The position numbers and the translations under genes are program-made. Shown here piece after piece: positions 13,307 through 64,000 of a DNA stretch of 64,000 nucleotides. The stretch comes from Leucoraja ocellata (taxonomy: Eukaryota), in contig JAWMAR010000142.1 in the NCBI GenBank assembly GCA_036785375.1, positions 2,666,001 through 2,730,000 of the forward strand. Direction: 5' to 3'. Under the pieces are notes generated by a model. That model was not told the DNA's origin and ran no database searches. It saw nothing but the letters and a program-made list of their open reading frames with translations. Within the stretch, counting starts at the first letter, position 1, and each line of letters opens with the position of its first letter.

Positions 13307-13334
13307 CTGAAGAAGGGTCTTGACCCGAAACGTC
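13307..13334 (+). ncRNA. Minimal type I hammerhead ribozyme core in PLE terminal repeat
   Basis: CTGAAGA-A-GGGTC-TT-GACCC-GAAAC-GTC: complete CUGANGA/GAAA core, stem II and GUC cleavage triplet. Confidence 0.75.
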
Positions 13335-14400
13335 GCCTATTTCCTTCTCTCCATAGATGCTGCCTCACCCGCTGAGTTTCTCCAGCATTCTTGTCTACCA
13401 AGTAAAGTCCAAGGGTCACTAATGAGGTAGATAGTAGTTCAGGACTACTCTCTACTTATGGTAGGATGATTAATTGGAAAGGATTTGTAATGTTTTTTTG
13501 CAATGAAGAGCAAATTAACAAACTGTCTGAAAAACCCTGCAACAGCATTGATGTAAATGGAAAATTCAAATATTGATTACTTTAAGGCCCCTGTGGTAAA
13601 AACATAAACTTTCACCCACTCAGTGGAATAAAACAGATTGATCTACACAGTGCAACCTGCCTAAATAAATAATTTGCTAAGAATTTTCACACTTGGGTGC
13701 AAGTTATTATTAACAAAAAGAATATATTTATTTTAACTGGGTTGTAATTAGAAACCATTCACTTCTGCAATTCCCATAGTACGGGTGTCAGAGGTTATGG
13801 GGAGAAGGCAGGAGAATGGGGTTAGGAGGGAGCAATAGATCAGCCATGGTGGAGTACACTTGACAGGCTGAGTAGCCTAATTCTGCTTCTATCACTTTTG
13901 ATCTTATGACCTCTATACCCCACCAACCTTTATTTGTCGTTTTCTATGTAAACCCTACTACTTACTTCCTAAGGACAGCGATTTCATTTTCGATGCTGTT
14001 CTCTTTACCCTCCAAAGCCTTCTTGGGGATACACTTTATGGCAACCAGCCTCTGGGTCCTCTTCTCCTCCGCCAGCATCACTTCAGAGAATGCGCCTCTG
14101 AAATAAGAAGGCAAAGATGTTAGGGCTTACTTACATTGAACTGGTTGTAGGGTACATCACCTAGTCATGGAATAACACAAAGATTAAAACCTTCTTATCT
14201 AACCAATCTGCAAAGAACTCACCCGATAAAGCCACTTGGCCTGGGACTGTCAGCCAGTCAGTGATCAATATCAAACACAATTACGAATGATACTGTATCT
14301 GACGTTATTACTAATGCGTGGAGCAAAGACTCACTCAAACAGGTCGGCTGTCAAGTCAAGCAGAAGCTTATTTAATTCAAGTGATCTTACAGCTGCAAAG

Positions 14401-15228
14401 CTACAGACAGGAAGTGTCACAGCTGGCGTCCTGGTGCCGTAGCAACAACCTAGAGCTCAATGCTCTTAAGACAGTAGAATTGATTGTAGACTTTAGGAGA
14501 GCTACCCCTCCCCTCACCATCAACAACACCACAGTCACATCTGTGGAGTCTTTTAAGTTCCTGGGAACAATAATCTCCAAGGACCTTAAGTGGGGGGCTA
14601 CCATCGACTCCACAGTCAAAAAGGCAAAACAGAGGATGTACTTCCTGCGGTAGCTGAGGAAGCACAATCTGCCACAGGCAATGATGGTCCAATTCTACAC
14701 GGCCATTGTAGAGTCTGTTCTCACCTTCTCCATCATGGTCTGGTTTGGCTCAGCCACCAAGCATCACACCTGGAGGCTGCAGCGAATCGTCCGATCAGCA
14801 TAGAAGATTATTGGCTGCAACCTTCCCTCCATTGATGAACTGTACACTGCAAGGGCCAGGAAGCGAGTGAGCAAGATAATCTCTAACCCCTCTCACCCTG
14901 GCCACAAACTCTTTGAATCACTTCCCTCTGGAAGGCGATTCCGGACTGTCAAAGCTGCCACAGCCAGACATAAAAACAGATTTTATCCACGAGTAGTTGC
15001 TCTACTCAACAGCCAAAAATCTGTAGCCTCCCTTTGATCTGGTATTTTGTTGGTTCACAAGCTTGATCAATGGTGTTTTATCATTAATGTCTTATTATTA
15101 TTAATGTTTAGTGTTTTCTGAGTCATTCGTAACTGTCACTGTATGTCATGTTGTTACTTGTGGGAGGAGCACCAAGGCAAATTCCTTGTATGTGAATACT
15201 TGGCCAATAAACTAACTTACTTACTTAC
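14401..15228 (+). mobile_element. Rex1/Babar LINE, 5'-truncated, relatively young
   Basis: YRQEVSQLASWCRSNNLELNALKTVELIVDFRR...FKFLG...KKAKQRMYFLR; in-frame stops only; AATAAA plus (ACTT)n tail; possible CAAAG TSD. Confidence 0.9.
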
Positions 15229-15494
15229 AAAGGATGCATGGCCCATCTGTCTTCATAGGCGCACTCCAAATATACTGATTATACAAAGCATGCTGCGGAC
15301 AAGCTACAGTTTCTACACCCAATGTCAGGTGTTAGCACTGAACCTGTCACTACTGACATCTTTATCCCTGCATAATTAGCTCATGCTTCGTCTGCAACAG
15401 TACAACCTCCAATAAGCTCTGAACTAAACTATTATTGTTATTATTGCACTATTATTGTTTATTTTTTAATGTGTACATATGTTAGCGTGAGCTT

Positions 15495-15750
15495 ATACTG
15501 TATATACACACTCACATATATATATATATATATACACACACACATATACGCACACACACACACACACAGTTTTATATAATAATAGATATATTATACACGC
15601 ACACATACGTGCACATAAAAACAAACAATAATAGTGCAATAATAGCATACTATATATATATATATATATATATATAATATATACACACACACACACATAT
15701 ATATATACACATATATGTATATGTGCAGGTATGTATGTATATATACATAA
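15495..15750. repeat. Compound (TA)n/(CA)n microsatellite inside a retroposon 3' UTR
   Basis: Direct reading of the sequence. Confidence 0.9.
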
Positions 15751-16700
15751 AACAAACCTTTTTTTCTCGTTCATGATATTGGTCACAGTGTACTATGTTT
15801 ACATATTCTGTTGTGTTGCTACAAGTAAGAATTTAATTGTTCTATCTGGGACACATGACAATAAAACACCCTTGACCACGTCACCTGGCCTCATTAATGC
15901 TTGCGCTGTTACAGTGGAGGCATCCATGGAGGATGTTTGGGGGGCATCATTACTACCATGGGGAATTGCCCTGTCCTGCTTCATCCAGATGGTGTTGAGC
16001 TTGTTGAATATTATTGTAGACGAGTCATTTTCAGAAATCTGGTGTCATGCAAGCAAGCAAGTGCCATATCATAGCGCCATCACCCACACCCACTATCAAT
16101 GGGCTGATGATAGGCAGCACTGGATTTGTTCAGCATTTTGTGAACAGGTTGTACTTTTAAAATGTTTCATATTGTCAGGTTGATGCCCCTGTTAAGTACT
16201 GAAGCAGCTTACCTAGACACCCAGCTAGTTCTGTGTGCAGGTTGTTAATATTACAGCAAGGATAGTGTCTGCTCCCAGTCTGTGATGCTCCCTATGGCTC
16301 AACTATTTCTACAATGTCTAAGCATGTTCCAGAGCTTTTTGTAAATTAGCATCTGCAGTTCCTTGTGTCTATGTTCCCAAGCTGTTGGTGCAGTCCACTC
16401 CTGATCCAATGTGAACTAACATCATTTTCTCCCAAAATCATTAATCCAATGATAGATACAGGAACAGTACAATCATGTTAATCAATTTGTCAGTGCAATG
16501 AGTATAAATTAAGGTTTGCATTGTTAATTTCACCACTATTTTTACTGCATTTCTCTGTCCACTACACCTCTGACTGAGTATTTATTTGTTAACATGACCA
16601 AATATAACTTCCTTCTCTATATCTTTGGCGTTTATCTCTTCCTCCCAGAGTAATGGGTGGACAGACATCTTCTGCAGAGCAGCGTAAATGTAAACATAAC

Positions 16701-61869: not shown

Positions 61870-62258
61870 AAAAGGACATAAAGTGATGGAACAACTCAGT
61901 GGATTGGGCAGCATCTCTGAAGAACATGGAGAGGTAACGTTTCGGGTCGAGACCCATCTTCAGTCATGATCTTGAGTTTGACTTGTTTGTATCGATTTAT
62001 AGTATAATCTGATCTGATTGGATTGCATGCAAAACACTGTATGCTTTTCACTCTACCTTGGTACACGTGACAATAAGAAAATTAAGTCAAAACCTGAAAC
62101 TAAAACCAAAATAAATCAAAGACTGAGGAACGGTCTCCACCCAAGACGTCACCTATTCATGCTCTCCAGAGATGCCGCCTGACCTGTTGAGCTACTCCAC
62201 CTCTTTGTGTCCTTTTGTGTAAAAAACACCAAGCATCTGCAGTTCCTTGTTTCTTTAC
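61870..62258. mobile_element. Inverted-dimer PLE-derived element, 12-bp TSD, with a Rex-like tail inserted centrally
   Basis: TAAGTTGAATTA at 61858-61869 and 62259-62270; arms 61870-61965 and ~62120-62220 are imperfect reverse complements. Confidence 0.8.
61936..61963 (-). ncRNA. Minimal hammerhead ribozyme core
   Basis: Minus strand reads CTGAAGA-T-GGGTC-TC-GACCC-GAAAC-GTT. Confidence 0.72.
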
Positions 62259-62473
62259 TAAGTTGAATTATGTGGGCCTGTAAACTGTACTGTAAATGCA
62301 AATGAACAGGGGGGTTTATTCGAGACACTTCTTCAGTCTGATTCTCAAATTATATTTCTCCAGAGATGCTGCCTGTCCCTCTGAGCTATTCCAGCATTTT
62401 GTGTCTATCTTTGGTGTAAACCAGCATCTGCAGTTCCTTCCCACACAGGGGGGGTTTATTCATTAGTCTATAT

Positions 62474-62835
62474 CAGTGATTCCCAACCTGGGGCCATATG
62501 GCCCCAAAGGAGCCAAGGCAAATTTCAGGGTGGCCACAGAAACATTTGGGGATTTAGGGGGCCACAGGTTCAATGAAGGGGGCCACAGAGCTACCACCCT
62601 GTTGCCTCCTAAATTTCAGTTCTAATAAATTTAAATCTATGTAGTTGAAATATTTTTGATGTTTGTGGTAACAGAATAAAAGAGAATATATGTGCAATTA
62701 ATAGACACTGATATTTTTATGGAAGGTATTATAATATTGAAGTACTTTTTTTCTGCTAATAATGTTGGGGGGGGGCACAGAAAAATTAAAAGATCCCAAG
62801 AGGGCCATGAGCTAAAAAAAGGTTGGGAACCACTG
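62474..62835. mobile_element. hAT (Charlie-like) MITE with 8-bp TSD
   Basis: TIRs CAGTGATTCCCAACCT / AGGTTGGGAACCACTG; TSD GTCTATAT / GTCTACAT (7/8); internal GGCCACAG repeats. Confidence 0.9.
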
Positions 62836-63510
62836 GTCTACATAACCATGAGGTTGAAGATGGTATGGTGTCAATGGCACAAATTACGACGTGATTATCA
62901 TGGCCGCACCATAAAGCGTTTTACCGTGATATCACGATGAACAAGTCTGAACCAGCTCACGAATGTGTTTAGTGTTGTCTATCTAAACAAGCAGCTTGGG
63001 AGAGACTTGCTGGCCAATTGAGTTCTTCATGCAAGTGTGAGCTCTTTAACAGAAATGTTTTGCTGCCTGCTCTCTTGTAACTGCACATTAATCATGTGAA
63101 AAGCAAAATAGCCCAACAACCCCCATTTGTTTCCAGAGGGGCTCTATTTGTATGGATACTGGAGTTCCGCCTTGTGTGATGTGCTGAACTGAAGGAGTGC
63201 AGCACGCAATGGGGTAACAGCAAACAAAAATGTTGAAACCGGGGCAAAACCTGGTTCTTAAATAAAGACCAGCCAGGTGGCTTACACCACAGGTCACACT
63301 GTTCCGAACTGTCGACAGAGCCCACGTGTCATTGACTCGTTGTTCACTAAAAAGAGAGTCAGCTGTTAAAGAAACAATTCTCCATAGTAGCCACAGTGCA
63401 ACAACACAAAGGCAGTGCTGGAAAAGAGTGAATGGCAGCCATGGAGAGGGACTCATGGCAGAATGCTGTGGTGTGACCCAGCCCTGCGCCACACACGGCC
63501 ACGAGCCAGT

Positions 63511-63752
63511 GTTTAGTTTAGTTTAGAGAGATAGCGTGGAAACAGGCCCTTCAGCCCACTGTGTCCATGCTGACCAATAATCACCCATACACTAGGTCTT
63601 TCCTACGCACTAGGAACAATTTACAGAAGCCAATTAACCTGCAAACCAGCACAATGTTGGAGTGTGGGAGGAAGCCGGAGCACTCGGAGAAAGTCCACGC
63701 AGGTCACAGGTGCTGTAAGGCAGCAACTCTACCGCTGCACCACTGTGCCGCC
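63511..63752 (-). mobile_element. HE1-like V-SINE with internal deletion
   Basis: (GTTTA)n tail, GGAAACAGGCCCTTC, GCAGCAACTCTACCGCTGCACCACTGTGCCG head complement. Confidence 0.88.
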
Positions 63753-64000
63753 CCCCCTGCAGTCATGGGGTTATTGTCAATGGTGCTTGCAGGTAAAATG
63801 TGGAGCTCTGAAAAATGAGTCTGACAAATTCCCAGGCCTAGCCTTCTGTTCTTATCTCTGACCTTTGTTCCAATCATCTGCTTATCAAAAAAACTCTCAC
63901 CTATGTTGACCTATTGCCTGCCACGCTTTGTCCGGTCTCTCGCCTTTTCTAGCTTTCTTCTCCCCTATCCCCAATTAATCTGACGAAGGGTCTCAACCCA

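Follow-up and report, generated by a model that had tools for sequence, protein, structure and literature searches.

Hammerhead motifs in a 64-kb stretch of the Leucoraja ocellata genome as probable retrotransposed terminal modules of a Neptune-type Penelope-like element

The stretch of DNA analyzed here, hereafter the window, comprises 64,000 nucleotides (nts) of the skate Leucoraja ocellata (assembly GCA_036785375.1, contig JAWMAR010000142.1, positions 2,666,001 to 2,730,000 of the forward strand), and a preliminary description had noted that short insertions with the core of a minimal hammerhead ribozyme recur in it on both strands. Our analysis indicates that these motifs are very probably retrotransposed terminal modules of a Penelope-like element (PLE) of the Neptune type, and that most of the copies are decaying and likely non-cleaving. 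The accompanying claim of a genome-wide RNA-cutting load was not supported, and the load had been overstated.

The hammerhead motifs and their parent element

A strict core pattern matched six times in the window, compared with a mean of 0.01 (maximum 1) in 300 shuffled sequences. The family profile built from strict cores detected 37 segments at E ≤ 0.001 and none in the reversed-sequence control, and a looser profile detected 44. All 20 sites named previously were recovered, and the density of about one segment per 1.7 kb exceeds the number listed at that time. Only four of the 37 segments, those at 13307, 38972, 58372 and 61963, keep all the catalytic bases together with helix II and the ACGT palindrome. 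These are four of the five cores that had been regarded as intact; the fifth (18314-18340, minus strand) lacks one base as well as the G10.1-C11.1 pair. The number of consecutive helix I pairs in the five cores (13307, 18314, 38972, 58345 and 61936) is 1, 0, 2, 2 and 0, respectively. Searching Rfam for hammerheads had been proposed as a check; in the window, the covariance models gave 33 matches at E ≤ 10, none of them to a hammerhead family. Of the window's 19 tandem-repeat rows, none was an array with a hammerhead in each unit.

The coding sequence adjoining the 58345 core has 13,274 candidate matches in the 3.44-Gb genome; 150 of these were scored, and 149 of them lie elsewhere, with 97% identity. 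Head-to-tail units of 3,946 bp, as well as inverted pairs, were present in 20 stretches surrounding long frames. The autonomous element carries one open reading frame (ORF) of 1,233 amino acids (aa), in which a reverse transcriptase (RT) is followed by a GIY-YIG endonuclease (EN). Pfam matched RVT_1 at 717-886 (E 1.6e-6) and GIY-YIG at 1137-1171 (E 0.013), both under the Pfam cut-off, and the protein has 185 homologues, with 39–55% identity and RT/GIY-YIG-type domains among the matches listed. A proline-rich stretch of about 330 aa occupies part of the N-terminal half. The hammerhead core is located 117 nts 3′ of the ORF stop, after a pyrimidine-rich untranslated region (UTR), and the first Met of the frame is about 164 nts after C3 of the core. 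Hereafter, C3 is counted as position 0, which puts the cut site between +27 and +28. The hallmarks of EN-containing (EN+) PLEs, that is, one ORF with RT and GIY-YIG, tandem and inverted copies and an optional tail, are all present. From the coding neighbors, the tandem units and the position of the core past the stop, we therefore conclude that the motifs of the window are the terminal module of a PLE, namely the end of the pseudo-long terminal repeat (pLTR) with the optional tail. Pfam gave no match for the two PLE coding fragments of the window because they are too short, and their identity was taken from the full-length element.

Between RT and EN, the motif CxxxxCxxC was read in the translation, and a CxxC is present within the endonuclease motif. 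A CX2-5CxxC linker zinc finger at this place is common to Neptune and Nematis (PMC8557442), and the linker points to an element of the Neptune type or of the Nematis clade. The autonomous family is very young at C8:5601001-5621000 (loci L036 and L037) and at the 149 places of 97% identity; its identical tandem units and many long open frames argue that it is likely still active.

The motif had been said to follow PLE coding sequence directly at 25200 and 58345, and at both places the adjacency was confirmed with a qualification. At 24835..25279 (plus strand), a 5′-truncated PLE shows the natural order, in which the C-terminal GIY-YIG coding piece (81% identity to the autonomous protein) is followed by the pyrimidine-rich 3′ UTR and then by the module, whose core has a 13-nt deletion. 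At 58263..58782 (minus strand), a young insertion lies within a single 15-bp target-site duplication (58263-58277 and 58768-58782), and the coding sequence is an RT fragment from the middle of the ORF (aa 633-763, 97% identity to the autonomous protein), joined at −4 to a module with an intact core (58345-58372) and a 2-bp helix I. An older PLE 3′ end at 45859..46187 (plus) consists of an endonuclease coding remnant and a module with mutated GAAA, and older RT coding remnants, with 48–58% identity to the autonomous protein, are found at 57542..58110 (minus).

The core of the autonomous element comprises the CUGANGA, GAAA and NUH boxes, the G10.1-C11.1 pair and one additional base following A9. 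Helix II has 4 bp. Helix I has 2 bp in the autonomous element (U-A or U-G, then G-C) and 0–2 bp in the window copies, which places the family at the short end of minimal hammerheads. Helix III is the palindrome ACGU, with a self-duplex of −1.7 kcal/mol, and it is kept in relatives, in accordance with the earlier assignment to the minimal type I hammerheads of PLEs with a loopless palindromic helix III. Among 80 related metagenome loci (30–61% identity in the best segment), many of whose contigs end too soon, nine have the motif on the coding strand; eight of these lie 105–836 nts past the end of the protein match, five of them at 105–139 nts. Their flanks are unrelated to those of the skate element (3–7 of 20 and 3–6 of 16 bases alike), the core being far better kept than the flanks. 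In addition, helix I pairing covaries across 10 motifs, with 27 pairs against 11.8 in strand-permuted sets, a value reached in 8 of 20,000 permutations. That helix I pairs despite unrelated flanks, and that the core is kept in distant relatives, argues that the core is, at the family level, a true minimal hammerhead of type I.

The 5′ half of the core, rich in purines, is also predicted to pair with a pyrimidine-rich stretch past the cut site (L037:1677-1730; window 38972 and 61963). Such pairing, the register of which differs by subfamily, is a possible off-state.

Abundance, decay and cleavage of the copies

The genomic sample was made up of 60 stretches, each 10 kb long and placed at set offsets on contigs belonging to the 210 largest; it does not represent all 5,847 contigs at random. 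It contained 285 modules in 599,800 bases, and the earlier view that the family is extremely abundant proved right. The module alone covers 4.6% of the sampled DNA, hence a large part of the genome, and extrapolation from this non-random sample gives about 1.6 million modules genome-wide. Coding ends numbered 20 in the same stretches, which corresponds to about 14 modules per coding end. The exact core pattern matched 120,549 times in the whole genome, or once per 29 kb, against 2 in the control. Several insertions on C1 recur in pairs with near-identical flanks about 2 Mb apart (L143/L182, L146/L179, L154/L173 and L140/L183); this is a segmental or haplotype duplicate, which inflates the counts.

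The core was covered by 149 of the 285 sampled modules, and in 32 of the 285 the core, helix II and the palindrome are all kept, so that the load previously supposed, one self-cleaving motif per 3 kb, is not borne out. The catalytic G12, which is part of a CpG, is kept at 0.72 among the genomic copies, like the CpG G's of the loop and the tail (0.78 and 0.81), and the ACGT palindrome decays at the CpG rate. Variants of stem II had been interpreted as preserving the pairing, but the changes within the genome are one-sided and not compensatory (U-A 140 and U-G 20 among 183 rows). Comparing core and flanks, another check that had been proposed, favors the core only between lineages and not, base for base, among the genomic copies. 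Judging from these frequencies, the catalytic positions of genomic copies decay like their neighbors, and most copies are likely decaying passengers.

In 35 of the 38 strict cores, helix I does not exceed 2 bp. Another GAAAC-GUH half is present within 300 nts on the same strand in 2 of 39 strict cores, and this rarity matters because helix III needs a second core. In four window copies, the predicted active dimer fold lies 17–38 kcal/mol higher than the best fold. In the literature, PLE minimal hammerheads are described as inactive as monomers and weak as dimers (PMC4209133), 8 of 9 Xenopus hammerhead dimers as giving no product (bioRxiv 10.64898/2026.07.22.740005), and the ribozyme of the anole element PAc as cleaving only with protein, dispensable for insertion and without ends in RNA-seq (PMC11167929).

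Transcripts were assessed in raw reads of a related species, using 1–5% of each run, from libraries that are unstranded or 3′-biased and fragmented. In two oligo-dT runs, the depth over the module was about 2,500 per direction, compared with less than 30 just past the module. Reads crossed from unrelated flank into and through the core, and no peak of read begins or ends at the cut site was present among the positions listed. RNA joints stepping back by 29–40 nts (L037:1675-1717, runs X21-X24) correspond to short head-to-tail core repeats in the transcripts of a relative, and such repeats could supply a cis partner for helix III.

According to the preliminary description, the copies constitute a genome-wide load of working ribozymes able to cut any host transcript reading through them. 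The number of exact cores and the abundance of the module in poly(A) RNA of the related species agree with this proposal, and so do 2,151 copies in which the flank extends helix I to at least 4 bp; 15 of these were inspected, of which 3 count as direct fold-backs and the other 12 reach 4–8 bp. Nevertheless, the short helix I of nearly all strict cores, the scarcity of near partner halves, the CpG-rate decay of G12 and the palindrome, the reads that span flank and core with no end peak listed, and the published inactivity of monomers and most dimers make it very unlikely. Most genomic copies probably neither self-cleave nor cut read-through RNAs, and any cleavage would be a weak event, dependent on dimers or protein, in the transcripts of autonomous elements.

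Ends of the short copies and their possible origin

Young copies were collected with a downstream anchor, for which the core need not be present, and the 127 obtained comprised 60 solo copies, 38 with UTR or ORF sequence upstream and 29 close fold-backs. After 14 solos were dropped (duplicated loci, unrecognized arms and internal deletions), 46 independent solo copies remained, 24 of them with a target-site duplication of at least 9 bp (none of 300 null cases reached 10 bp). The 5′ end was located at −6 to +4 in 35 of the 46 (11 at −2) and at the +28 cut site in one. Genome-wide, 23,829 young cores have T at −1, and 1,941 of them (8%) differ at −2; 4,425 of the remaining 21,888 (20%) differ at −3, and 2,468 of the 17,463 then left (14%) differ at −4. 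In total, 8,834 of the 23,829 cease to match within −2 to −4. Because the share differing peaks at −3, the commonest first base of the copies is −2, the first base of helix I. This 5′ boundary is the less usual feature of the family. In the PLE literature searched, we found no report of a 5′-end pile-up at the core. The 3′ ends form two peaks, near +90–95 and +123–130, about 36 nts apart; the module is thus about 95 bp long, or about 132 bp with the tail, which is present in 48 of the 127 young copies.

The cut site was also considered as the 5′ end of the copies and was rejected, as it is no hot spot genome-wide (1,004 ends, against 1,410 at a control four bases on, both being raw counts). 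A script divided 28 distinct cut-site loci into 8 with the core still upstream, 7 fold-backs and 13 others, and about half of the 13 were clean ends by eye, so there may be a small cleavage-derived class among them.

Since the short copies hold the whole core, their template RNA was uncut. By analogy with the anole element in vitro, the element protein would nick DNA, and reverse transcription would start inside the RNA at one of two tail sites. Priming at the tail site nearest to the RNA 5′ end would lead to run-off after 95–132 nts and thereby to a short copy. After run-off, the cDNA would join the target, fold back or jump, the last possibly represented by the junction of the module with mid-ORF sequence at window 58376. 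The RNA 5′ end at the edge of helix I would be the transcription start, which is the simplest RNA end, and on whether the 5′ boundary of the short copies has this origin we are evenly divided. Bases −5 to +1 resemble an initiator, and an ACGT lies 27–30 nts from the putative start. In Penelope of Drosophila virilis, an internal promoter includes a downstream element that contains ACGT (PMC2377424). One could go further and regard the hammerhead region itself as an internal promoter, with the 5′ strand of helix I as the initiator and the ACGT at the site of the Penelope downstream element. RNAs starting at helix I and primed 95–132 nts downstream would then mass-produce the roughly 1.6 million copies, which have the size of short interspersed elements (SINEs), without a SINE gene, leaving about two thousand loci flank-completed; we regard this as doubtful. 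As the boundary cuts helix I, host flanks would in that case rebuild helix I at random, and the two thousand loci would be a natural library of flank-completed ribozymes.

The main rival to the start-site step, possible although in our judgment rather unlikely, is a resolution hot spot, at which the cDNA folds back or switches template, or the endonuclease of the element cuts, at a short palindrome just before the core. Close fold-backs, 29 of the 127 young copies, are indeed centered on palindromes, in 12 cases on the one at +10 within helix II, and junctions show short target-derived fillers and microhomologies of 1–3 nts. Moreover, the anole enzyme cuts near its own pLTR (PMC11167929), and palindromic inverted junctions have been interpreted as self-priming (PMC3846280). 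However, solo copies, which have no arm, give the same peak, and the stronger palindrome at +10 yields few solo ends. Jumps to ORF sequence also occur at −2 to −4, both at window 58376 and at locus L239, as expected for RT run-off at a template end.

Two further explanations concern the boundary and the source of the copies. The pyrimidine tract and CAG before the core resemble a splice acceptor, and in D. virilis an intron end maps at helix I (PMC4209133), so the boundary might be the 3′ end of an intron, with splicing improving helix I or setting the boundary. This is very unlikely, given that the intron-less form via the obvious donor occurs only 2 times in the genome, that 30 loci share no bases upstream of −2, and that no GT..AG joint landing there was present among the best 15 of 157 and the best 15 of 53 RNA joints; splicing at the CAG via the obvious donor was ruled out on these grounds. 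Alternatively, the short copies could be an independent non-autonomous family, a retrozyme or SINE, made from its own short master RNA or circle. The ratio of modules to coding ends of about 14 to 1 (285 against 20) and the head-to-tail core repeats of 29–40 nts in the RNA of a relative fit this idea, and retrozymes derive from pLTRs (bioRxiv 10.64898/2026.07.22.740005). We consider it improbable nonetheless: the copies are dispersed and not in tandem arrays, the young short copies match the autonomous module and have its two 3′ ends, and ends at +28, to be expected of a circle produced by cleavage, are rare.

Several points weigh against the preferred reading, in which mostly non-cleaving, decaying terminal modules were copied from RNAs possibly starting at helix I. 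In the 183 module-spanning copies, non-CpG columns are kept at 0.93 in the core and 0.90 in the tail (p = 0.03); when matched by base, the difference persists for A only. Fold gaps of 10–28 kcal/mol are also seen in 6 of 7 motifs of relatives, and the energy gap alone therefore does not prove inactivity; folding energies, moreover, ignore tertiary contacts and protein help. To these are added the RNA libraries, which come from another species, are unstranded or 3′-biased and were read at 1–5% of each run, the raw cut-site counts and the flank-completed copies. The start-site step rests on insertion ends and initiator-like sequence; among the motifs of relatives, such bases can be recognized in about one only, and joining through microhomology can move the −2 peak or make it sharper.

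Other features of the window and comparison with known systems

The best-preserved short modules of the window are at 13306..13404 (plus; core 13307-13334 with every catalytic base and a 1-bp helix I) and at 38968..39094 (plus), where a tailed module with an intact core (38972-38999, helix I of 2 bp) is preceded by a degenerate core about 40 nts upstream. At 61820..62252, two modules are arranged head-to-head, the minus one (61820-61966) with an intact core at 61936-61963 and a helix I of 0 bp, the plus one (62119-62252) degenerate. Fold-back pairs were found at 18213..18442 (18213-18346 minus, which includes the damaged core 18314-18340 in one arm, and 18336-18442 plus), at 22084..22268 (both strands, old), at 56269..56434 (both strands, both modules degenerate), and at 10837..10962 (both strands), a young pair without any hammerhead core. 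In the pair at 38159..38306 (38159-38243 minus and 38240-38306 plus), helix II is broken, and a nested insertion at 38290-38905 interrupts the pair. This insertion has inverted ends matching at about 21 of 26 bases, with about 30 module bases repeated on both sides, and looks like a DNA-transposon derivative.

Degenerate modules on the plus strand are located at 4913..5025 (old), 11963..12270 (two, 11963-12075 and 12187-12270), 24064..24163, 25989..26063, 46645..46736 and 48856..48969. Four are clustered at 7174..8040 (7174-7237, 7247-7361 and 7730-7839 minus; 7947-8040 plus) and three at 31023..31370 (31023-31087 and 31164-31272 minus; 31297-31370 plus). Coreless fragments occupy 62355..62447 (plus), 13252-13296, 18691-18788, 20142-20182, 22940-22980 and 56056-56108, and one module (63971..64000, plus) is cut by the window end.

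Apart from the module family, the window contains a 900-bp inverted duplicate of 90% identity (3-887 and 31735-32633), an 830-bp direct duplicate of 94% identity, each copy with a module fragment (19773-20581 and 22561-23377), and GC-rich tandem arrays with periods of 25, 30 and 41 (26355-27201). A second dispersed family, SINE-like and about 300 bp long, has more than 10 copies, among them 16701-17002, 17133-17447, 30053-30358, 41387-41707, 47315-47578 and 52531-52841. Pfam was applied to 59 of the 76 window ORFs, leaving out those over N and some overlapping frames, and gave one weak match and placed no host gene. The match is to ALKBH8_N (E 2.5e-5) in a short frame at 14315-14650; ALKBH8_N matches are often retroelement remnants.

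Publications already describe the ribozyme, how it is built and how it spreads as single motifs that come from truncated elements; the copy number here is high, although it was counted differently. The metazoan minimal hammerheads of PLEs (PMC4209133) share the type I core with an extra base between A9 and G10.1, the G10.1-C11.1 pair, the loopless palindromic helix III and the location in the pLTR, and they too occur mostly as single motifs from truncated elements, with some close opposite-strand pairs. Helix II has 4 bp here and 7–8 in Schistosoma, and helix I has 2 bp, as in D. virilis, rather than 4–5. The 120,549 exact cores compare with about 4,000 in coelacanth and 9,000 in Xenopus, although the descriptors differ and the present pattern has no helix I requirement. 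Non-long-terminal-repeat retrozymes (bioRxiv 10.64898/2026.07.22.740005) are likewise non-coding, derived from pLTRs, equipped with type I hammerheads and present in vertebrates, but they are tandem repeats with a hammerhead per unit, unlike the dispersed monomers or inverted pairs found here.

Insertions of EN+ PLEs consist of partial tandems with an inverted 5′-truncated copy and a tail of 30–40 bp (PMC8557442, PMC3846280). The skate element agrees with them in the order of RT and GIY-YIG in one ORF, the tandem and inverted copies, the optional tail (about 36 bp), the target-site duplications and the linker cysteine motif. Its ORF of 1,233 aa, with the long proline-rich stretch, compares with about 700–1,000 aa in most homologues, and the 5′ ends of its short copies pile up at one spot, whereas those of canonical EN+ PLEs are spread out. 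In the literature searched, we found no account of this PLE family in cartilaginous fish.

A close parallel is Poseidon PAc of the green anole (PMC11167929), the tail of which marks two internal RT start sites. Both elements have two internal RT starts giving a tail, those of the skate element being putative, a hammerhead just upstream, an uncut RNA as the insertion template and no peak of RNA ends noted at the cut site. PAc belongs to another clade, and its ORF starts within helix II, compared with the first Met well downstream of the core here; the available part of that source reports no 5′ boundary hot spot. PLE hammerheads were already known. The tens of thousands of young insertions in the skate genome are a record of the RNA that was copied, and this record, with a template almost always uncut and a favored end where the ribozyme begins, provides genomic support for what had been reported in one in vitro study.

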